Below, piece after piece: positions 53,599 through 63,617 of a DNA stretch of 64,000 nt. Position 1 is the stretch's first letter. The number at the start of each line of letters is the position of its first letter. Position numbers and translations under genes: made by a program. The notes beneath the pieces were generated by a model. That model searched no databases. It was not told where the DNA came from and saw only the letters and a list, made by a program, of their open reading frames with translations. Source of the DNA: Methanothermococcus sp. Ax23 (GTDB lineage Archaea; AGJL01; Methanococci; Methanococcales; Methanococcaceae); assembly GCF_049075655.1 (NCBI RefSeq), contig NZ_CP157522.1:1344001-1408000 (forward strand), given 5' to 3'.

Positions 53599-56500
53599 TT
53601 AAGGTTTTTCAACCTTTACTGCTTTTCCATCCTTCCATTCTACGAATATTGGTTCTGATGGAATGTCATCCAATGTTTTGAAGTATTCTACTGCTGCTTT
53701 TGTTCCCCATCTGTCAGAACCTGCTAATAATATTACCGTATGGCCGTTTATTATCTGTTTTTGAATTACTCCTTTATTTGCACCTGGGTAATCGTTGGTG
53801 ATTTTTACTTTGAATGTCCATGCGTATTTTTTAGCCAATGGGTTTGCCACAGGACCTCCAACTAAGATACAATCTTCGGTTATTTCCAATGATTTATTTA
53901 CTAATTCGGTGGTATTTTTAAGACATTTTGCTGATAGGTTGTTATCTATTTCTGAACCGATTATTAATTTTGCATTATGGACAATTTCTTTAATTTTCTC
54001 TGATTTGATGTCCTGTGCGACATCCAGATAGTTTATAGTCCCATGTCTAGAGCTTGATGATGTTGATATTGTGGTGGTTCCAGTAGTAGTTGGCAGTGTT
54101 GCAGCAAGTATAATATTTACTTCTGGGTCTTTGATTAAGGTTAGTTCCAACACTCCCTCAACAGGTATTCTATACCACCCGATCTTGCTGGTAATATCGT
54201 TTTCTTTCAAGGTTATATTTTCTGTTCCATTATTTACGATTATATTTTCAACATCCAAAGTTCCTATTGGGATTCTTATTATTGAAAATCCTTTTTTTGA
54301 GGTGTTTATTGCTTTGAATTTTATTGTAGATATTAATTTACTATTTTCTTTTTTAGCTTCTTCTTTTGTTATGTTTGTTATGTTAAATCCTTCATTTAGG
54401 ATTGGTTTAATCTCTGACAATATATTATCAAGTGTTTTATTCATCTCGTTTTCATCGTTAATTTTAGTGTTTTTAAGTTCGATGGCTTTCTGCATCACTT
54501 CTTTTAAAGTTTCAATATGTTCTCCAGTAAAGTTTATTGATATATTTTCAAGATGAGGTATCTCAATGCTGTCATTTTTTACAGGAATTACTGTAATATT
54601 AAGGTCATTTCCAGATATTACTTTTATATTATCCAAATCAACGTTCTTCAATGCCTCGGAGTCCATATTAATATTTTTCAATGCTTCTTTTAATTCTTCC
54701 CCCATAATTGTGTTGTTTATAAATATTTTCTTAAATATATAGCCTTCACAATCTGACAATACTGCATGTTTTAGTATTGCTGAATAGGTATCATTTTCAT
54801 TAATAACTTTGAATGTTACATTTCCAAGGTTAAATGTTCCAGATTTTGTGAAGTTATAACCACTTATAAATAGGCTGCCATTATTTACGCTCCAATTAAC
54901 TATGCCAATTCCACTTACATTTAAAATTTCGATATTTTTGAAGGTTATGTTAAAATCATAACCACTACAAGGTCTTTTAGAACTTATAGATTCTGCATCA
55001 ATGGATGCTACAATGGTTCCATTAGTTTCAGATATATTATATAATTTCAAATAAACAGGCACTTCAACAACTTTTATGTTTTTAACCAGTTTATTATCGC
55101 TTTCATTTTCTTCTTTGATAGAATTGGATTCATCAACCATTGTAACGATTGTATATGTTTTTGTGTCATCTGGTGTCCAGTTAAATGTTATTACTTTTGT
55201 TTCTCCAATATTTAATCCGCCTATTGTTTTTGTTCCCAAGTCATTTGAATCTATGTATAAATGGACATCAAACGACTTATTTGTTATATTCTGATGACCA
55301 TTGTTTGTTAATGTTATGTTTATTGTTGCCGGCATCCTATATATTGATGGATTTGAAATTTTCATGTCGATGATTTTAATGTTTGGTCCCTGAACTACAA
55401 CAGTTTTTGGATTGATAATTAGATTATTAAACTTGTATCCGTTTATGTCGGACACAACGACTCCATCTATCGCAATCTCTGAGTTTCCTACGTCCAATGC
55501 CTTAAAGGTTGCTCTTGCTATGGTTGTTGATGTGTTTATACTTCCATCCATTATACTGAATATGACCTTTCCATCTTCAAATGTTGTGTTTTTAAGTCCT
55601 TCTGACGAGTTTATTAAGAATGTGAAATTTGTGCATTCCAATATTTTTGAATCATAGGTTAAAACTCCGTCAATGCCTTTTGCAGGCCTATCTGCGGTAA
55701 TATTATTTAATGATATATCTACTGTAAATGTTTCGCCTGTTTTTGTTAAATTTATTGATGGGATTAAATTTAATGCGATAGGTTCTTCAACTGATTCAGC
55801 TGTTTTTGTGTATTGGTTATTATTTTCATTAGTTTCTTTTATTTCCCCATTTGAATCAACTACTGCAACAATTGTATAGTTTTTATTTTCTGTCGGCATG
55901 AATGTGAAGTTTATGGTTTTTGTTTCACCCACATTTAATCCTGAGATAGTTTTTGTTCCAAGGTCTTGGGCATCAATATACAATGCCACTGAAAAATTAT
56001 TTGAAACGTTTCTTTCGCCGATATTTTTAATTACAATTGGTATTGTATTCTCTTGATATGATTTTAAGTTTAATACTAAAATATCATTAATTGTTAAATC
56101 TGACCCAGGAATAATTATTTTGGTAATATCTGAACTTTTAATGACACTGTAATTTTCATTATCTTTGATAGTAACATCCTTCAACTGAGTTGTAGCATTT
56201 CCAACATTTATTATATTATAAGTAATATTTACTGTGAAATTTGTTGATTTATTAAGGTTCTCTATTTTAAAGAGGTCATTTGAAGTATTAAACGAAACAA
56301 CTCCTGCATTTGATGATATACCAACTGGTGTCATTATTGATTTATCGTAGCTCAGCGTTCCACTAATTTCACTTAGGGTTTCATTTTCTTTTGGAGATAT
56401 GATTATTGGAACAGTTATATTCTCTCCGAGCTCTCCACTTACAGTCGTAGGAGTTATTATATCTGCTATTGGTTTTAATAGTATTGTTATGTTTGAATTT

Positions 56501-56937
56501 TTTAAAGTTATGTAATATTTTACCCCATTGGCATCAGATACAGAAGTTTGAGTTAAATCTACTGAATCATTTCCATCCTTTAACGCCTTAAATGATAATG
56601 TTGCTACTGTGAAGTTACCATAGGGTTCATTAGACATCCACAATAAACTTATTTTTCCAGACGAAACATCGATATCCTTCAAACCAGCATTATTTGCAAT
56701 ATCACTTAACGTAATGTTCGTTAAATTCAAAATACTTGAATCATAAGATATAGTAGTTTCAAATCCACCACATTTTGTATCAGCAGGGACATTTTTTACA
56801 ACTAAATCTAAGTTGAATGTATCTCCAACATAGGCATTTATATTGTCGGGGGCTAATCCTACGGATACATTTTCTGCATAACACACTCCCAACAAAGAAA
56901 TCATCAAAACCGAGAGTGTAAATAACTTCCATTTCAT
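53599..56937 (-). CDS. Scaffoldin-like surface protein: signal peptide, 3-4 cohesins, 2 CARDB domains, Thr/Ser linker, C-terminal S-layer domain
   Basis: Cohesin pattern VGDTF..GFETTISYDSSIL..VATLSFKAL..SDANG repeated; CARDB VD...IKE.NE.NN twice; ILVGGPVAN...LAGSDRWGTKAA as in Methanococcales S-layer C-termini. Confidence 0.85.
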   Translation of the reverse strand: MKWKLFTLSVLMISLLGVCYAENVSVGLAPDNINAYVGDTFNLDLVVKNVPADTKCGGFETTISYDSSILNLTNITLSDIANNAGLKDIDVSSGKISLLWMSNEPYGNFTVATLSFKALKDGNDSVDLTQTSVSDANGVKYYITLKNSNITILLKPIADIITPTTVSGELGENITVPIIISPKENETLSEISGTLSYDKSIMTPVGISSNAGVVSFNTSNDLFKIENLNKSTNFTVNITYNIINVGNATTQLKDVTIKDNENYSVIKSSDITKIIIPGSDLTINDILVLNLKSYQENTIPIVIKNIGERNVSNNFSVALYIDAQDLGTKTISGLNVGETKTINFTFMPTENKNYTIVAVVDSNGEIKETNENNNQYTKTAESVEEPIALNLIPSINLTKTGETFTVDISLNNITADRPAKGIDGVLTYDSKILECTNFTFLINSSEGLKNTTFEDGKVIFSIMDGSINTSTTIARATFKALDVGNSEIAIDGVVVSDINGYKFNNLIINPKTVVVQGPNIKIIDMKISNPSIYRMPATINITLTNNGHQNITNKSFDVHLYIDSNDLGTKTIGGLNIGETKVITFNWTPDDTKTYTIVTMVDESNSIKEENESDNKLVKNIKVVEVPVYLKLYNISETNGTIVASIDAESISSKRPCSGYDFNITFKNIEILNVSGIGIVNWSVNNGSLFISGYNFTKSGTFNLGNVTFKVINENDTYSAILKHAVLSDCEGYIFKKIFINNTIMGEELKEALKNINMDSEALKNVDLDNIKVISGNDLNITVIPVKNDSIEIPHLENISINFTGEHIETLKEVMQKAIELKNTKINDENEMNKTLDNILSEIKPILNEGFNITNITKEEAKKENSKLISTIKFKAINTSKKGFSIIRIPIGTLDVENIIVNNGTENITLKENDITSKIGWYRIPVEGVLELTLIKDPEVNIILAATLPTTTGTTTISTSSSSRHGTINYLDVAQDIKSEKIKEIVHNAKLIIGSEIDNNLSAKCLKNTTELVNKSLEITEDCILVGGPVANPLAKKYAWTFKVKITNDYPGANKGVIQKQIINGHTVILLAGSDRWGTKAAVEYFKTLDDIPSEPIFVEWKDGKAVKVEKP
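56482..56874 (-). repeat. 393-bp cohesin-coding repeat, copy A (inverted relative to 59992-60384)
   Basis: Blocks of about 109 and 164 bp are nucleotide-identical to copy B, with a short divergent patch between them. Confidence 0.92.
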
Positions 56938-56975
56938 GATGTATCACCCAAAAAATCAAAAAATAATTAATTAAT

Positions 56976-58337
56976 TCAATTTGCAGTATATGCTGTTGCT
57001 GTTCCCGTATCTGGGTCATATTTAAGGAAGTAATGTGTAGTTCTTCCGCTGAATGCATCTGGGTGTATGATTGTTCCCAAATCCATCAACACCTGGTCAG
57101 TATTCATAAGTCCGAGTTGCCAGTAATCTTCACTTATACAGAATAATTTACCATTTTGAACTGATTTAAATGTGTCATATCCGGGATGGTCATCTTTGAA
57201 GTTTGATAGCCAGTTTGTATTTGATGGCACGACCCAAATATCAGCATTTTTTGCTCTCTCTGCAAATGTTTCATAGTCAATCTTTGCACTGCCTGTTCCA
57301 GGATAATCGCTAAATATATAATCCCCATGGCAGTCATCCATTATTCCCTTAGCTACATAGGATTGAGCCTTAGGCACATAGGTTCCACCATAGGATGGGT
57401 AATTTTTACCCCATGCAACTAGAACAGGTTCTTTACCTCTTGTTAATCTTCTAACATTTAATGCCTTCTTTTCAACCTTTGTGAAGTATTTGCTTGCCAC
57501 ATCCTCTTTGTTGTAAAATGCGGCAAACATCTTAACCCATTCACATCTTGAGATATATGAGTCTTCTAAATATTCTGCATCCGCAATATAGGTAATATTC
57601 AAATCTTTACATTTTGCAATAATGGCATCTCCACTGTATCCAGGATAAACGAATACAGCCTGTGGAGATATGTTTATTATTTTGTCATAGTTTGGACTGT
57701 ATGATGAACCAACATCAACTATGGAGCCGTTATCAAGCCCCTGTTTAATATCGTCGAAATACCACGTGTAGCTTCCGCCCCACATGATTCCTTTAACTGA
57801 ATCAATTACTGAACCGTCATTGTTCAATGGCTCCATTAATGCTATCTGTGTAGAGCTCATCACAACGACATTTGTTAATGGAACATCTAGGATTTTATCA
57901 TACTTTCCATCCGCCCAGGTTGGTATGGATTGAGATGCATTTTTTAATAAGAATTTCTGCCCTGTGGCATCTTCAACTATTTTATAGGAGTATGCATCGC
58001 CGTTGTATGGATTTACTTCATTTCCATTTTCGTCATAGTAAGTAATTTTTATGTCTTTGGCGTAGTGAATAGGTTCTCTCATTTTATCATAGTTTTTGAA
58101 GAGATAAACTACATCTGCAATATCTATTGAATTATCAGCGTTTAAATCTCCATCTTCAAGGTCGAGATTTCTATTTTTGAAGAGATAAACTACATCTGCA
58201 ATATCTATTGAACCATCTGCATTTACATCGCCTAATCTATGGTTGTAATCCCCATCTGCGAATGTTGGGGAAATACATATTAATAAAGATAATACACTAA
58301 GTATTATCATGGGATGAGTATTTATATTTTTCGACAT
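56976..58337 (-). CDS. Dockerin-fused ABC-type substrate-binding protein (BtuF/Fe-siderophore class)
   Basis: Signal peptide; GDVNADGSIDIADVVYLFK x2; VPLTNVVVMSST, EYLEDSYISRCEWVK..AAF, FKSVQNG, DLGTIIHP; no lipobox or TM anchor. Confidence 0.85.
   Translation of the reverse strand: MSKNINTHPMIILSVLSLLICISPTFADGDYNHRLGDVNADGSIDIADVVYLFKNRNLDLEDGDLNADNSIDIADVVYLFKNYDKMREPIHYAKDIKITYYDENGNEVNPYNGDAYSYKIVEDATGQKFLLKNASQSIPTWADGKYDKILDVPLTNVVVMSSTQIALMEPLNNDGSVIDSVKGIMWGGSYTWYFDDIKQGLDNGSIVDVGSSYSPNYDKIINISPQAVFVYPGYSGDAIIAKCKDLNITYIADAEYLEDSYISRCEWVKMFAAFYNKEDVASKYFTKVEKKALNVRRLTRGKEPVLVAWGKNYPSYGGTYVPKAQSYVAKGIMDDCHGDYIFSDYPGTGSAKIDYETFAERAKNADIWVVPSNTNWLSNFKDDHPGYDTFKSVQNGKLFCISEDYWQLGLMNTDQVLMDLGTIIHPDAFSGRTTHYFLKYDPDTGTATAYTAN
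58089..58232 (-). repeat. Dockerin duplicated F-hand repeat
   Basis: Two D-x-N-x-D-x-x-I-D-x-x-D Ca-loop plus helix units 81 nt apart. Confidence 0.9.
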
Positions 58338-58510
58338 ATTACATCACCCAAAAAGTTTTTAAAGTAATATTCTAATCATATATTGTATTTTATTTAATAT
58401 TATACAAGAAAAGTTTAAAAAAATTCATAATATTTATATATTACGGTTTAATTTATAATATATAAACATATGTTTAATATACTAAAAAATATTATATGAG
58501 TGGCGATATT

Positions 58511-59068
58511 ATGAAAAAAACTGTATTTTTTATTACCATATTCCTTCTATCAATCCCAATAGTATTGGCAGATGATGTAAATCTAAATGTAGATATGCCC
58601 AACAAGGTTAGTAAAGGAGATAATTTTACCATTAATATAGATGTTAATTTAAAAAATAAGGACATATTAGGTTTTGAATGCACAGTGAAAATTCCTATCG
58701 AAAAAGTTGATGATATAAAAATAACAGGCATTGCAGGAAATGAAGAACTAAAAAAAGAAGCAGGGAAATTTTACGAAATTAAAAAGAAAGATTCATCAGT
58801 ATCTATAAGATTTACCACTTTTGGAAAGCCATTAAATTCAGATTTTCATTTAATGACTATAAATGCAACAGCTTTAAAAGAAGGTAATGTGACATTTACA
58901 TTTAAATCGATAGCATCTGATGAAAATGGACATAGGATTCCAGTTGATAAAAAAACTACCGATTTGATAATAGTTGATAACAACAAAACAGTTGAATCCG
59001 ATGAAAATTTTTTATTATCAATAATTGATGCCATAACGAATTTTTTAAAATCCATACTTGGTGGTTAA
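58511..59068 (+). CDS. Single-cohesin secreted protein with amphipathic C-terminal helix
   Basis: Signal peptide; VSKGDNFTINI..ILGFECTV..LMTINATALKEG..ASDENG; FLLSIIDAITNFLKSILGG. Confidence 0.7.
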   Translation: MKKTVFFITIFLLSIPIVLADDVNLNVDMPNKVSKGDNFTINIDVNLKNKDILGFECTVKIPIEKVDDIKITGIAGNEELKKEAGKFYEIKKKDSSVSIRFTTFGKPLNSDFHLMTINATALKEGNVTFTFKSIASDENGHRIPVDKKTTDLIIVDNNKTVESDENFLLSIIDAITNFLKSILGG

Positions 59069-59938
59069 ATGAAAATAAATAAATTATTAATTATACCTAT
59101 TTTTTTGATATTATTTACTGAAAATTTTGCATTGGATGATATCATTGTGAAATTAACCCCTGATAACATAGAAACTAATGGAGATTTGGTAAATTTTAAT
59201 ATTACAGTTGAAAATATACCTCCAAAGGAAAGTTTAGGCATGCCATCATCATATAGTGACTCAGAAATAAAAGACGGTGGATGTCAAGGCGTGGATATTT
59301 GTATAAATTATTCGAAGGATTATCTAAGCCCCATTGGATTTAATTGGAGCGATAAGTGTAAGGATGTTAAAATAAAGGAATATAAATTCGAAGATGGAAT
59401 TTTTTATTTATCCATAATGTTTGATGAGATAATATATGATAATACCATAAACCTCGGGACAATAACCTTTAACCCCATAAAAAAAGGAGAAACTAACTTG
59501 AATGTTAGTGGTAAGGTGAGCTCCGAATGGGGCGTTAAATATGATAGTGATAATATGTATTGGCGTAACTATGGTGAAACATCACAATATAAAGAGCCTT
59601 ATCCTAACACTAAATTTTATGGCGCCACAGTAAATATTAAGGAAATAGGAAATTACACAGGTTCTGCTAATTTAAATGGAGAATTGAATGACAATATAGT
59701 TTCATCATCTTCGTCTTCATCGACAATAATTAACAATGTAAATGTAATCACAAACCAAAGTGTGCCTGAAATTATTGTAAAGGAAATAAATATTTCAGAG
59801 GAGAAGCCGAATATAACGGTTATAATAAACACTGATGGAAAAAATGGTTTAGATTATAATTTATTAGCGTCTATTTTTGTTGGAGGTATTTTTTCAGGAA
59901 TTACATTTGGATTATTATTTAGAAGGATGATACCATGA
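59069..59938 (+). CDS. Cohesin-domain protein with Ser-rich linker and C-terminal TM anchor
   Basis: GDLVNFNITVENIP..GCQGVDICINYSKDYL..LGTITFNPIKKG; C-terminal hydrophobic helix followed by RR. Confidence 0.72.
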   Translation: MKINKLLIIPIFLILFTENFALDDIIVKLTPDNIETNGDLVNFNITVENIPPKESLGMPSSYSDSEIKDGGCQGVDICINYSKDYLSPIGFNWSDKCKDVKIKEYKFEDGIFYLSIMFDEIIYDNTINLGTITFNPIKKGETNLNVSGKVSSEWGVKYDSDNMYWRNYGETSQYKEPYPNTKFYGATVNIKEIGNYTGSANLNGELNDNIVSSSSSSSTIINNVNVITNQSVPEIIVKEINISEEKPNITVIINTDGKNGLDYNLLASIFVGGIFSGITFGLLFRRMIP

Positions 59939-62016
59939 AATACATAATTTTATTTTTATCCTTTTTTGTTTTTCTATCAGGAGTATGTGGTGAAAATGTA
60001 TCCGTAGAATTGACCCCAGAGAGTATAAATGCCTATGTTGGAGATACCTTTAATTTAGATTTAGTTGTAAAAAATGTCCCTGCTGATACAAAATGTGGTG
60101 GATTTGAAACTACTATATCTTATGATTCAAGTATTTTGAATTTAACGAACATTACGTTAAGTGGTACATCCAATACTGCAAATTTAAAAACAGTAGATGT
60201 TTCATCTGGAAAAATAAGTCTATTGTGGATGTCTAATGAACCCTATGGTAACTTCACAGTAGCAACATTATCATTTAAGGCGTTAAAGGATGGAAATGAT
60301 TCAGTAGATTTAACTCAAACTTCTGTATCTGATGCCAATGGGGTAAAATATTACATAACTTTAAAAAATTCAAACATAACAATAAATCCATTAAACCAGA
60401 CCTTAGGAACCATTACATTAAAAGATTTTGACCTGAATAAAAATATTGATGCAGTTTTATCCATAACTGGGGCAAAAACTCCTATAAAGAATATTTCAGG
60501 TAGCATTTCATTTAAAAATATAACAATAGAAAACAGCCCTACCCTAATGGACATATTTTGTAATAATTTCAGCTATACCATATATAATAACAATATTTCA
60601 TTTTTTATCATTCCAAATGAAAAGGATGAGAATAAAACCATATTCAATCTTTTAAAAATACCAGTAAATGTCAATAATGCTAACTATAACATTTCAATGA
60701 ATTTAACGATAAATGGAGAGCAGATTAAGAACATAACAATAAAAACAGAAGAAGAACAGGAAAATATCTCAGAGTATAAGGGATTAATGTTCTACGTAGA
60801 TTCTGGATACAATGAAGAAACAAATATCTCAATAGGCTACTCAAAAGAAATTAAGTTAAAAGTATGCAATATTGACAAAAATTTGACAAATTTTTCAGGA
60901 TATCTCTTCATAAATAATTCATTATTTGATGTTTCAGATTATGGAATTTCAGAATATTCTGACATATATGATAGAATAAACACTTCAAATATTACCTTTA
61001 ATAACAGCTACCTGTATTTCAACATTTCACTAATAAACGGAACAAATGGGACATTTAGTATTTTAAAGTTTAAATTGTCTCCAAAGATTAATGAAAATAT
61101 TTCTTCAATAATATATCTTGAAAATCTATCTATATACGCAAATGATACAAAAATAAACTTATCAGTTAAAAATTTAACAGTAAATATTGTAAAGAGGGAA
61201 TCCAATAATCCACCAAAATTAAAAATAGCCTACAAAATAGTTAATAACAAAGAAGTGCATTTTTATGCCTTAGGTTATGATGAGGATAACGACGATTTAA
61301 AATATGTATGGGATTTTGGAGATGGGAAAAACTCAACAGAGGAAAATCCAATTCATATATATTCAAATTATTCAATATATAAAATAAGATGTATTGTTAA
61401 TGACCCATTAAATGGAACAGACGAAGTGGAAGGAATTATCTCCATTAAAAATATTAATCCAGTAAATTATACAATTTCCAATGATTCCTTCATGCTGGAC
61501 AAGGAAAATGAAAATAAAACCATTTATTTAAATATAACCTTAAAAAATCCATTAAATTATAAAGTTGATGGGTATATCAATTTTATGGATTACGGAAATA
61601 ATTATCATCCGCCAAAAACCCAGTATCACATTATATTAAATCCAAATGGAACAAAAAATCTTATTATTCCAATAAATGTGTCAAAATCATGCAAAATTAA
61701 ATGGAATGTTGTTTATTATCCAAATATACGAAATAACGCAAACAGCAAAATAGATATCATATTCTATCAGTGGGATTTTGAAAAAAAGATAGAATTTAAA
61801 TCCAAACCACCGATGGTAATAAACAATTATACAAAAGTCATAAACTTCAACAATACAAAGGTAATATTGAAGGTAAATAAAGTTGAGACCGTTAGGAACT
61901 ATGTTATAAACAAAACCATAACAACTACAAGTCAAAACTCTATACCATACTATTCATTTGCGTTATTATTTGGATTTATAGTGGGAGTAATATTAATTAG
62001 ATTTAAAATTAAATAA
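59935..62016 (+). CDS. Membrane-anchored scaffoldin-like protein: cohesin(s), PKD domain, C-terminal TM
   Basis: First cohesin nearly identical to that of 53599-56937; PKD YVWDFGDGKNSTEENPIHIY; C-terminal TM plus basic tail; many N-x-S/T sequons. Confidence 0.85.
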   Translation: MKYIILFLSFFVFLSGVCGENVSVELTPESINAYVGDTFNLDLVVKNVPADTKCGGFETTISYDSSILNLTNITLSGTSNTANLKTVDVSSGKISLLWMSNEPYGNFTVATLSFKALKDGNDSVDLTQTSVSDANGVKYYITLKNSNITINPLNQTLGTITLKDFDLNKNIDAVLSITGAKTPIKNISGSISFKNITIENSPTLMDIFCNNFSYTIYNNNISFFIIPNEKDENKTIFNLLKIPVNVNNANYNISMNLTINGEQIKNITIKTEEEQENISEYKGLMFYVDSGYNEETNISIGYSKEIKLKVCNIDKNLTNFSGYLFINNSLFDVSDYGISEYSDIYDRINTSNITFNNSYLYFNISLINGTNGTFSILKFKLSPKINENISSIIYLENLSIYANDTKINLSVKNLTVNIVKRESNNPPKLKIAYKIVNNKEVHFYALGYDEDNDDLKYVWDFGDGKNSTEENPIHIYSNYSIYKIRCIVNDPLNGTDEVEGIISIKNINPVNYTISNDSFMLDKENENKTIYLNITLKNPLNYKVDGYINFMDYGNNYHPPKTQYHIILNPNGTKNLIIPINVSKSCKIKWNVVYYPNIRNNANSKIDIIFYQWDFEKKIEFKSKPPMVINNYTKVINFNNTKVILKVNKVETVRNYVINKTITTTSQNSIPYYSFALLFGFIVGVILIRFKIK
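59992..60384 (+). repeat. 393-bp cohesin-coding repeat, copy B
   Basis: Reverse complement of 56482-56874 with mosaic identity. Confidence 0.92.
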
Positions 62017-62207
62017 TTATTTTTTAATATTTTTTATACATACTCAAATATTAATTAAATAAAAATAATTTTTTTAATATATTTAATACCAGTTTAATAA
62101 TTATTTAAAATTGAATGGTAAATTTTAAATACTATTTTAATTACTATAATATTACTATAATATAAATATTTAATTAATTATTACCAATTAGATAAAAAGG
62201 TGTTATT

Positions 62208-63473
62208 ATGAAGAGAATATTAATACTCTCTATTTTGACATTAATATCGCTGATTCCCGCAACAATGGGAGCAGAAATAGGAGATGTAAATAACGATGGT
62301 TCAATAGATATTGCAGATGTGGTTTATCTGTTCAAGAACAGAAACCTTGACCTTGAAGATGGAGATTTGAACTGCGATAATTCCATAGATATTGCAGATG
62401 TGGTTTATCTCTTCAAAAACTACGATACATTTAGAAGTCCAGTTGTATTTGCTAAAACATTTAAATTAGAGCCGCACTGGGATGAAGGATATTGTTATAT
62501 GGAAGATTCAAAAGGATACAAATTTGTTTTATTAAAAGAAGGTGCAACACCACCAAATATTCCTGATGCAAAGGTAATCACAACACCAGTGAAAAGCATA
62601 GATACTATATTTTACTGCCCAATTGTTTCAACAGCTGATGTATTAAACGATTCCTCATGCTATGATACAATAAAAGGAGTTCCGAGCTCCGTCTTGAAAT
62701 ATTCATCGGAGCTCACAAAAAGATACGACGAAGGTAAGGTTGCAAATATTGGTACATCATCCAGTATGAATTATGAAGTAGTAGTTAATACAACTCCTGA
62801 TATTGTATTCTTAGGAGATTGGTCGTCCCATGACACAATGGAAGCTAAATTGAAAGAATTGGGAATTACTGTATCAAGGTTCTACACATATGATGAACCA
62901 ACATTCTTAGGAAGGATAGAGTGGGTGAAATATGCCGCTGCCTTCTGGGGAGAAGACAAATACAACAAAACAAACGATTACTTCCAAAGTGCATGGAAGA
63001 AGAAGAACGAGTTGTTAAGGACAACAAGAAACGCAAAAGACTACCCAAAAGTTGTTAATTTCTGGAAATATAGCGATACAAGCACGCCAAGTATTCCACA
63101 GGCTCAAAATTTTTACAGTAAGTTAATAAATGATTTCAGAGGAGATTATGCATTTAATGACATACCTGGAACAGGTTCTGAAAAATTAGATACTGAAACA
63201 TTTATGGAAAGGGCAACGAATGCTGATGTTGTCATATTAAGACAGTGTAGTGATATAAAAACAAAAGAAGACTTATTGGCTAAATATCCAACATCAGGCT
63301 TTGAAAACTTCAATGCGTATAAAAATGGAAGATTCTATGTTTCAAAACCTGATTATTATATATGGGAAGCAAAAGACCCGATTGGATATATGGAGGACTA
63401 TGCCAAGATGGTTCATCCAGAATTATTCCCTAATGGAGATAGTGATTTAAAATACTACATTAAGCTTCAATAA
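62208..63473 (+). CDS. Dockerin-fused ABC-type substrate-binding protein (BtuF/Fe-siderophore class)
   Basis: Signal peptide; GDVNNDGSIDIADVVYLFK x2; PVKSI, EPTFLGRIEWVK.AAAF, FNAYKNG, DYAKMVHPELF; no lipobox or TM anchor. Confidence 0.85.
   Translation: MKRILILSILTLISLIPATMGAEIGDVNNDGSIDIADVVYLFKNRNLDLEDGDLNCDNSIDIADVVYLFKNYDTFRSPVVFAKTFKLEPHWDEGYCYMEDSKGYKFVLLKEGATPPNIPDAKVITTPVKSIDTIFYCPIVSTADVLNDSSCYDTIKGVPSSVLKYSSELTKRYDEGKVANIGTSSSMNYEVVVNTTPDIVFLGDWSSHDTMEAKLKELGITVSRFYTYDEPTFLGRIEWVKYAAAFWGEDKYNKTNDYFQSAWKKKNELLRTTRNAKDYPKVVNFWKYSDTSTPSIPQAQNFYSKLINDFRGDYAFNDIPGTGSEKLDTETFMERATNADVVILRQCSDIKTKEDLLAKYPTSGFENFNAYKNGRFYVSKPDYYIWEAKDPIGYMEDYAKMVHPELFPNGDSDLKYYIKLQ
62280..62423 (+). repeat. 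Dockerin duplicated F-hand repeat
   Basis: 46 of 48 aa identical to the dockerin at 58089-58232. Confidence 0.9.
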
Positions 63474-63617
63474 ATCTTTATTTTATTAAATAAAATGAAA
63501 TTATTTTTTATTTCTATTTCTATTTTTTACTATTTCATTTTGTTTTTATATGTTTAAACATAATTTTTTTATATATAGTTTAAAATAAATAATTTTATAG
63601 ACTTATAACGTGGAATA

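Follow-up and report, generated by a model that had tools for sequence, protein, structure and literature searches.

Introduction

Bacterial cellulosomes combine cohesin-bearing scaffoldins with dockerin-tagged enzymes, and their scaffoldins are anchored via SLH domains. Type I dockerins consist of two tandem repeats of ~22 residues, each with a 12-residue calcium loop (D-x-N/D-x-D-G-x-I-D-x-x-D) followed by a helix, and display a dual binding mode, which the internally symmetric repeats described below recall. Here, we analyze a 64,000-nucleotide (nt) stretch of the genome of the archaeon Methanothermococcus sp. Ax23 (contig NZ_CP157522.1, positions 1,344,001–1,408,000; hereafter the window), in which six clustered genes at 53599–63473 encode two substrate-binding proteins (SBPs) of ATP-binding cassette (ABC) type with an N-terminal dockerin-like module and four proteins with cohesin or cohesin-like modules. 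We propose that cohesin-dockerin tethering probably replaces lipid anchoring of the two binding proteins of a FecCD-type importer, a reading built on domain homology, gene order, co-occurrence, an anchor swap between lineages and purifying selection.

The closest described counterparts stem from anaerobic methanotrophic (ANME) archaea, where ABC binding proteins of NikA/OppA and TroA type that bear dockerins have been reported together with cohesin proteins at the level of annotation (Chadwick 2022, PMC9012536). Both systems are archaeal and non-cellulosomal, and both combine secreted dockerin SBPs with cohesin proteins in the same genome. They differ in cargo, which here belongs to the Peripla_BP_2 family (FecCD/BtuCD class), and in the position of the S-layer-type module, which resides on a cohesin scaffold here and on dockerin proteins in ANME-2c (PMC9012536). 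Beyond the ANME account in the parts of that paper dealing with these modules, the present system adds strict synteny of six genes across an order, orthologs that bear a lipobox in place of the dockerin and a location within an importer operon. Cohesin-dockerin binding has been verified for Archaeoglobus fulgidus, according to the same source, and likewise concerns an archaeal pair outside a cellulose context; what such pairs do beyond cellulose degradation has been an open question ever since they came to light in archaea (1999–2009 literature cited in PMC9012536). In its sections on these modules, a further survey gives domain counts only (Timmers 2017, PMC5244752). Our full-text literature searches yielded no paper that connects cohesins or dockerins with transporters of Methanococcales, and the statement in the original prediction that no characterized system of this type is known holds for the literature searched. 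Dockerin-tagged SBPs are already in print for ANME archaea, and the present system joins that uncharacterized kind.

Results

Two divergent gene units encode six secreted proteins

The six genes form two divergent units (all coordinates refer to the window). On the minus strand, SBP-A (453 aa, 56976–58337) is followed after 38 nt by P1 (1112 aa, 53599–56937), a scaffoldin-like protein. On the plus strand, C190 (190 aa, 58496–59068), C289 (289 aa, 59069–59938) and P5 (693 aa, 59935–62016) abut or overlap, the P5 start lying 4 nt inside the end of C289, and SBP-B (421 aa, 62208–63473) follows after a gap of 191 nt. All six open reading frames (ORFs) of the claimed cluster were found intact. Ratios of nonsynonymous to synonymous substitution rates (dN/dS) against the closest relative fetched range from 0.09 to 0.24 over the six genes (P1 0.24, SBP-A 0.10, P5 0.14, SBP-B 0.09), and the module is under purifying selection.

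Hydropathy analysis reveals a signal-like hydrophobic segment at the N-terminus of each of the six proteins and a C-terminal hydrophobic helix in C289 and P5 only. None of the six matches a strict lipobox pattern. A candidate lipobox on P1 or P5, the motif GVC near the end of the signal peptide, was rejected as it fails this pattern and as several orthologs of P1 and P5 do not share the cysteine. Pfam scans of the six proteins identified no glycoside hydrolase or carbohydrate-binding module family, and the ORF list contains no permease or ATPase between 53599 and 64000.

The binding proteins carry divergent dockerins directly behind the signal peptide

SBP-A and SBP-B both match Peripla_BP_2 (PF01497; 70.5 and 56.7 bits, cut-off 27.5 bits) and are ~40% identical to each other. 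Apart from the signal peptide, the fold and the N-terminal module, no other anchor is apparent in SBP-A. Directly after the signal peptide, both proteins contain two near-identical repeats of 27 residues, each a 12-residue loop rich in Asp and Asn followed by a helix (DVVYLFKN), forming a 54-residue dockerin-like module at 58077–58238 (minus strand) in SBP-A and at 62274–62435 in SBP-B. Both calcium-loop motifs are legible in either protein, and alignments place the module immediately before the first strand of the binding fold, without an intervening linker.

A profile of 21 dockerin modules from the order (A5) was compared with protein structures in the PDB. The best 11 matches are all dockerins, with 2y3n_B on top (E 1.6e-4), and the alignments with the solved dockerins 2y3n_B and 2ccl_B cover both repeats. 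Across the 21 sequences, 21 columns are invariant, including the Asp/Asn positions of the loops. Of the 40 genomes of the order, 18 have matches above the curated cut-off (22.9 bits) of the Pfam model Dockerin_1 (PF00404), mostly on SBP-sized reading frames and on few other proteins. Because of these profile matches to PDB dockerins, the PF00404-positive relatives and the readable calcium loops, we accept the module of the window proteins as a divergent dockerin, and the original claim of two SBPs with an N-terminal dockerin and neither lipobox nor transmembrane (TM) anchor stands, on profile evidence for the former and hydropathy for the latter.

At the nucleotide level, the SBP-A dockerin contains an internal direct repeat (81-nt spacing, 90% identical), and the dockerins of SBP-A and SBP-B form an inverted repeat (58077–58234 and 62278–62435; 158 nt, 87% matched). 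The dockerin pair is nearly identical within each genome, and the 158-nt repeat pair in particular appears to show recent gene conversion. A hidden Markov model (HMM) of the dockerins detects only SBP-A, SBP-B and two truncated paralogs in this genome, where PF00404 finds nothing else near its cut-off. By these two models, the sole dockerin-bearing cargo of the cohesin/dockerin module in this genome is the pair of ABC binding proteins.

Four cohesin proteins differ in their anchors

P1 and P5 are recognized as cohesin proteins by Pfam (PF00963, curated cut-off 24.1 bits). P1 matches Cohesin (52.5 bits, two stretches), CARDB (120.6 bits, two stretches) and S_layer_C (34.6 bits), and P5 matches PKD_4 (44 bits) as well as, with its N-terminus scanned alone, Cohesin (42.3 bits). 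A PF00963 scan of the own genome returns three matches above cut-off, all within P1 and P5. For C190 and C289, no Pfam Cohesin match was obtained at E values up to 10. We therefore compared ortholog alignments of C190 (A1, 13 rows) and C289 (A2, 12 rows) with an alignment of the first cohesins of P1 and P5, which Pfam recognizes (A3, 25 rows). The A3 alignment takes in the signal peptides, and its HMM scores are slightly raised thereby. In hhalign comparisons, both families match A3 with high probability (99.1%, E 1.1e-18 for C190; 98.9%, E 1.1e-17 for C289), and the A3 HMM scores 38.8 bits on C190 (aa 6–167) and 52.1 bits on C289 (aa 1–159). Neighbors in the ESM Atlas fall into the Cohesin set in 26 of 30 cases for C190, whose Atlas record begins at residue 6, and in 28 of 30 for C289. 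The top four of five PDB matches of the C190 profile are cohesins, at weak E values of 0.04–0.13, and none of the PDB matches of the C289 profile is a cohesin. C190 and C289 are treated here as carrying divergent cohesin-like modules.

P1 displays the most elaborate architecture. Behind its signal peptide follow cohesin 1 (aa 22–162, 56452–56874; A3 HMM 240.6 bits over aa 1–162), a weak cohesin-like module (aa 161–283, A3 HMM), a CARDB domain, cohesin 2 (aa 382–524, 55366–55794; 76.1 bits, E 7.8e-25; also matched by Pfam Cohesin when the own genome was scanned), a second CARDB domain, a divergent, Pfam-negative cohesin 3 (aa 647–744, 54706–54999; 20.3 bits, E 1.2e-7), a spacer, a linker rich in Thr and Ser and a C-terminal S-layer-protein module (aa ~950–1082, 53692–54090), all on the minus strand. 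The last ~130 residues of P1 align by BLASTP with the last ~120 residues of the cell's own 552-aa S-layer protein (at 512 kb of the genome contig, C1; 33% identity over 139 aa, E 5e-7). In the own-genome scan, this module matches PF05124 with 49.2 bits, and P1 also matches TIGR01564 (S_layer_MJ) with 39.1 bits. P5 is composed of a cohesin (aa 20–160; A3 HMM match aa 1–160), an unassigned beta-rich region, in which the A3 HMM finds a weak further module at aa 294–420, a PKD domain (aa 435–495) and a TM helix (aa 670–688). C289 combines its divergent cohesin-like module (aa ~22–190) with a Ser-rich linker and a TM helix (aa 265–283), while C190 carries a single such module and a short amphipathic C-terminal tail. 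The four cohesin proteins and their different anchors had been described in the original prediction; Pfam, the BLASTP match to the S-layer protein and hydropathy agree with these anchors, and the cohesins of P1 and P5 are found by Pfam, those of C190 and C289 by profile and Atlas comparison only.

The first cohesins of P1 and P5 are alike to an unusual degree, forming an inverted repeat of 393 nt (56482–56874 and 59992–60384, 93% matched). At the protein level, P1 cohesin 1 is 81% identical to the P5 cohesin, compared with 66% to its own ortholog in L038 (L numbers denote fetched loci, G numbers genomes). This repeat, together with a mutual identity exceeding that to the ortholog, points to recent gene conversion between the two and to interchangeable modules. 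The likeness of the dockerins, and of the first cohesins of P1 and P5, within genomes fits a shared binding specificity. Complex prediction with a P5/P1-type cohesin (aa 20–160, 25 rows), the SBP-A dockerin (aa 28–92, 21 rows) and two calcium ions scored 0.14 and 0.16, with the mark set at 0.32; controls were not folded, and the result carries no weight either way.

The C190 tail varies between lineages. In one family of the order (L039–L042, L045, L047), it comprises a full TM helix with basic residues, whereas in ortholog alignments of the present lineage it is a conserved amphipathic helix of lesser length that terminates in GG. The anchoring mode of C190 thus seems to have changed between lineages.

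Comparison with cellulosomes and lipid-anchored receptors

Two-repeat calcium-loop dockerins, a multi-cohesin scaffold and surface anchoring via an S-layer-related module or a membrane anchor are features that the locus has in common with bacterial cellulosomes as summarized in PMC9012536. A bona fide cellulosome or amylosome was nevertheless rejected, since none of the six proteins contains a glycoside hydrolase or carbohydrate-binding module and the cargo consists of transport receptors instead. Judged by its domains, P1 is like a cellulosome scaffold in having several cohesins (three supported, one weak) and a surface anchor, but is not part of a cellulosome. Further differences concern the dockerin, which is N-terminal and linker-free here, with an inter-repeat spacer ~6–7 residues shorter than in the aligned bacterial dockerins, and the anchor, which is an archaeal S-layer protein C-terminal module in place of the SLH domain. 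For the Archaeoglobus fulgidus pair (Bayer 1999; Haimovitz 2008), we know of no described link to an ABC importer. Lipoprotein-anchored class III SBPs of FecCD/BtuCD importers belong to the same Peripla_BP_2 family and have the same partners, two FecCD permeases and an ABC ATPase; the present system departs from them in that a dockerin would replace the lipid and two paralogous SBPs would serve one importer.

A FecCD-type importer adjoins the module in related genomes

The original prediction had noted that no glycoside hydrolase, permease or ATPase lies in the visible locus. This is correct for the visible locus, yet the missing importer reflects a rearrangement specific to this genome, because in L038, the closest relative fetched (87–88% nt identity), the genes for FecCD1, FecCD2 and the ATPase come directly after SBP-B. 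The two ends of the six-gene module are precisely the points at which similarity to L038 breaks off. In the own genome, an importer block with intact FecCD, FecCD and ATPase genes is located at C1:744145–748014, ~650 kb from the module. It is collinear with that of L038 and still abuts a decayed, frameshifted dockerin gene of SBP-B type. A second FecCD system at C1:820–823 kb keeps a lipobox-type binding protein, and the dockerin is hence likely a specific alternative rather than a sign of general loss of lipid anchoring.

None of the NCBIfam equivalog models reaches its cut-off on the binding proteins of the window. The profile of the binding-protein family finds 4ovk_A as its best PDB match, a periplasmic binding protein given without a name (E 1.4e-11), followed by the siderophore and Fe-citrate binders BauB, YclQ, YfmC and FeuA, while a single-sequence PDB search with SBP-A returns nothing at E ≤ 0.01. 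Because similarity is low, a ligand is not transferable from the solved proteins. The best model for the ATPase is ‘corrinoid ABC transporter ATPase’ (221.8 bits, cut-off 537), and for the permeases the highest scores come from BtuC and FhuB models; all of these are far below the cut-offs. As far as these data go, the ligand may be of the iron- or metal-chelate or corrinoid class, and they do not assign the corrinoid or metal-chelate ligand suggested before.

Dockerin and lipobox alternate among orthologous binding proteins

We extended the analysis to 40 genomes of the order Methanococcales, representing two families and five genera, from which 20 loci were fetched, 13 of them cohesin-bearing. 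SBP-A homologs occur in 37 of the 40 genomes. The module is conserved across the order in strict gene order, with all six genes in 9 of the 20 fetched loci (L038–L044, L046, L047) and reduced versions in four more: L048 without SBP-B, L056 without SBP-A, L045 with C190 and two SBPs only, and L050 with SBP-A and P1 only. In 10 of the 13 cohesin-bearing loci, the cohesin module has genes of the FecCD importer next to it. Of these, L045 has only the ATPase and L048 only the two permeases; none were found in L043, L046 and L050. Genomes positive for the cohesin profile A3 and for the dockerin profile A5 number 27 each. Both profiles match in 26 genomes and neither in 12, leaving two exceptions. 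The cohesin-only genome, G031, has a completeness of 64%, and a contig end truncates its SBP. The dockerin-only genome, G018, is 99% complete and encodes a dockerin-bearing SBP-B ortholog (L055 7053–8324) adjoining an importer ATPase.

Four genomes (G002, G005, G007 and G017) encode orthologs of SBP-A and SBP-B without a dockerin. Their signal peptides end in [A/S/P]GC, a lipobox-type motif, and are followed by a polar linker. No cohesin genes are present in the loci of these four. In the alignment with these orthologs, the dockerin directly adjoins the same first strand of the binding fold. In G005, G007 and G017, the lipobox orthologs flank a FecCD-FecCD pair and a 377-aa ABC ATPase; the stretch fetched for G002 contains no importer gene beside the SBP ortholog. 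In a quick maximum-likelihood tree built from 35 binding-protein domains, SBP-A and SBP-B form separate groups, with the lipobox forms united in one clade per paralog (support of 99 and 100 in the Shimodaira-Hasegawa-like approximate likelihood-ratio test). On the SBP-B side, the lipobox clade is nested among dockerin forms, which suggests that lipobox forms are secondary.

Other dockerin cargo was seen in two relatives. In G037, a secreted alkaline phosphatase (L064 534–2054; PF00245, 262 bits) carries a dockerin at its C-terminus. In G027, a large protein of >1100 aa (L066 4145–7450) combines a TED domain of alpha-macroglobulin type and three CARDB repeats with a dockerin that is Pfam-positive at 33.5 bits. 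Dockerin proteins of alkaline phosphatase or alpha-macroglobulin type were not found in the own genome with these queries.

Discussion

A proposed plug-in anchor for transport receptors

We propose that the locus supplies the extracellular portion of a type II ABC importer (FecCD/BtuCD type) whose usual lipid anchor on SBP-A and SBP-B would be replaced by a calcium-binding dockerin fused directly to the N-terminus of the binding fold. After secretion, the dockerins would plug into cohesins of the four co-encoded proteins. C190, C289 and P5 would reside in or on the membrane via their C-terminal helix and hold SBPs near the permease, whereas P1 could hold several SBP copies in the S-layer or quasi-periplasm, a placement proposed because it combines at least three cohesins with a C-terminal module that the cell's S-layer protein also has. 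Loaded SBPs would deliver a ligand, presumably of iron- or metal-chelate type, to the FecCD heterodimer and the ATPase encoded at C1:744–748 kb. An anchoring function of the dockerin is argued from the same SBPs carrying a lipid-anchor signal where cohesins are absent.

Several observations weigh against such tethering. Although Pfam models for Cohesin (PF00963), CARDB, PKD, S_layer_C and Peripla_BP_2 match as the original prediction had it, PF00404 stays below cut-off on the isolated dockerin modules, with 18.5 bits for SBP-A and 18.3 bits for SBP-B (14.8 and 11.9 bits in the own-genome scan). On the isolated segments, EF-hand models score about equal to PF00404. No cohesin was found in G018 by A3, A1, A2 or PF00963, nor a FecCD gene in its 15-kb locus, and four database clusters of G018-like proteins are source-named Methanococcus maripaludis; because of this genome, a dockerin can apparently persist without recognizable cohesins. 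Since the genomes are kin, the two-by-two co-occurrence table overstates the association. The distance of ~650 kb between importer and module makes co-regulation not evident in this genome, and the dockerins on other cargo in G037 and G027 imply that the cohesins are not intrinsically SBP-specific. Contigs from RNA libraries (four small runs of one sample) are 90–95% identical to the window but come from a relative and cannot prove transcription, strand or level. One of them spans 58216–62291 (C190-C289-P5) and breaks at both dockerin repeats; that P1 and most of both SBPs are uncovered is without meaning.

Part of these observations would be accommodated by other explanations. If the cohesin proteins formed a general surface-display platform, with the SBPs as one cargo among several, the scaffold would serve nutrient capture and hoarding or contact with cells and minerals rather than, primarily, receptor positioning. 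The alkaline phosphatase and the alpha-macroglobulin-TED/CARDB protein with their dockerins speak for this, as do the six or more cohesin modules, in four divergent types, that the locus has for only two near-identical dockerins, and the CARDB and PKD modules, typical of surface and adhesion proteins in the survey of Timmers 2017 (PMC5244752, domain tallies). We regard a display platform as unlikely, given that no dockerin cargo beyond the binding proteins was found in this genome, that the module lies in or beside the importer operon in most cohesin-bearing loci, and that the SBPs switch to a lipid-anchor signal where cohesins are absent. The dockerin-like module might alternatively be an EF-hand-type calcium-binding cap that stabilizes the SBPs of a thermophile or binds another target such as the S-layer, leaving the cohesin proteins with other partners. 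The sub-threshold PF00404 scores, the equal EF-hand scores and the retention of the module in G018 would suit such a cap, which appears quite unlikely to us in view of the tight co-occurrence (two exceptions in 40 genomes), the strict synteny and the alignment of both repeats to solved dockerins; moreover, in each of the four inspected loci that have lost the module, a lipobox has been gained and every cohesin gene is gone. A system left defunct in this strain after the rearrangement split module from importer would explain why the importer sits beside frameshifted or truncated SBP-B-type copies and why similarity to the closest relative breaks off at the module ends. Six intact ORFs with dN/dS values of 0.09–0.24 and intact FecCD, FecCD and ATPase genes render such decay highly improbable, and binding proteins encoded in trans can serve an importer.

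Returning to the tethering of receptors by cohesins, one may extend it to an ancestral two-tier antenna. P1 in the S-layer would hold copies of the two chelate receptors at the outer boundary, C190, C289 and P5 would hold more of them at different heights by the permease, and the symmetric dockerin would allow either orientation or a change of tier, such that scarce metal chelates captured at the S-layer are handed inward, a relay that the original prediction had also raised and that is purely conjectural. In relatives, the sockets would also accept alkaline phosphatase, making for a general nutrient-scavenging surface, and the M. jannaschii-type lineage would later have swapped to lipid anchors. 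As a whole, this extended picture is tentative and rather unlikely to hold.

What is notable about the system is the contrast of lipobox and dockerin, the embedding of the module in an importer operon and the presence of relatives in described species. ANME examples derive from uncultured organisms, whereas database relatives of the present proteins are source-named as described species of Methanothermococcus, Methanococcus and Methanocaldococcus. A natural control is thereby at hand, in which orthologous SBPs of one importer occur with a dockerin and four cohesin genes on one side and with a lipobox and none on the other. Standard annotation misses the system, as homologs are named ABC transporter or iron-complex substrate-binding proteins or hypothetical, and PF00404 is precomputed on 2 of 46 database relatives. 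The locus provides a testable role for archaeal cohesin-dockerin pairs and renders three questions accessible to experiment, namely whether a non-covalent plug can replace the lipid anchor of a transport receptor, what is gained from a multi-cohesin scaffold and how the archaeal S-layer space is organized. Thermostable, orthogonal cohesin-dockerin pairs would in addition serve as parts for protein display.

Genes around the importer and the module

The surroundings of the importer block contain remnants of the dockerin family. At C1:748100–749240 (L058 6100–7240), an N-terminally truncated, frameshifted dockerin paralog of SBP-B type is positioned directly upstream of the FecCD pair, and at C1:754321–755970 (L058 12321–13970) a second truncated paralog forms a 528-aa ORF made up of a partial binding fold and a ~270-aa extension of no known family. 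Both lack a signal peptide and have the first calcium loop cut. Between them (C1:749349–754345, L058 7349–12345), the ORFs 751122–751805 and 752601–753077, which lie downstream of the 528-aa ORF, repeat parts of its C-terminal extension with different ends. Small ORFs lie between these two, two of which resemble each other, and no ORF of the stretch has a Pfam match. This arrangement is reminiscent of orphan-cassette arrays at polymorphic toxin loci.

On the other side, the importer ATPase is adjoined by a NifH-like gene (C1:743182–744021, L058 1182–2021) for a ‘nitrogenase reductase-like protein’, which scores 504 bits with PRK13230 and stays below the CfbC cut-off. The same gene is found beside the lipobox SBP-A ortholog in L051 (5451–6290) and L052 (14541–15380), pointing to a conserved neighborhood. 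At the distal end of the six-gene module, similarity to the closest relative ends at 63474, and the gene that follows from 63618, open at the window end, may encode an HD-domain protein as judged by motif.

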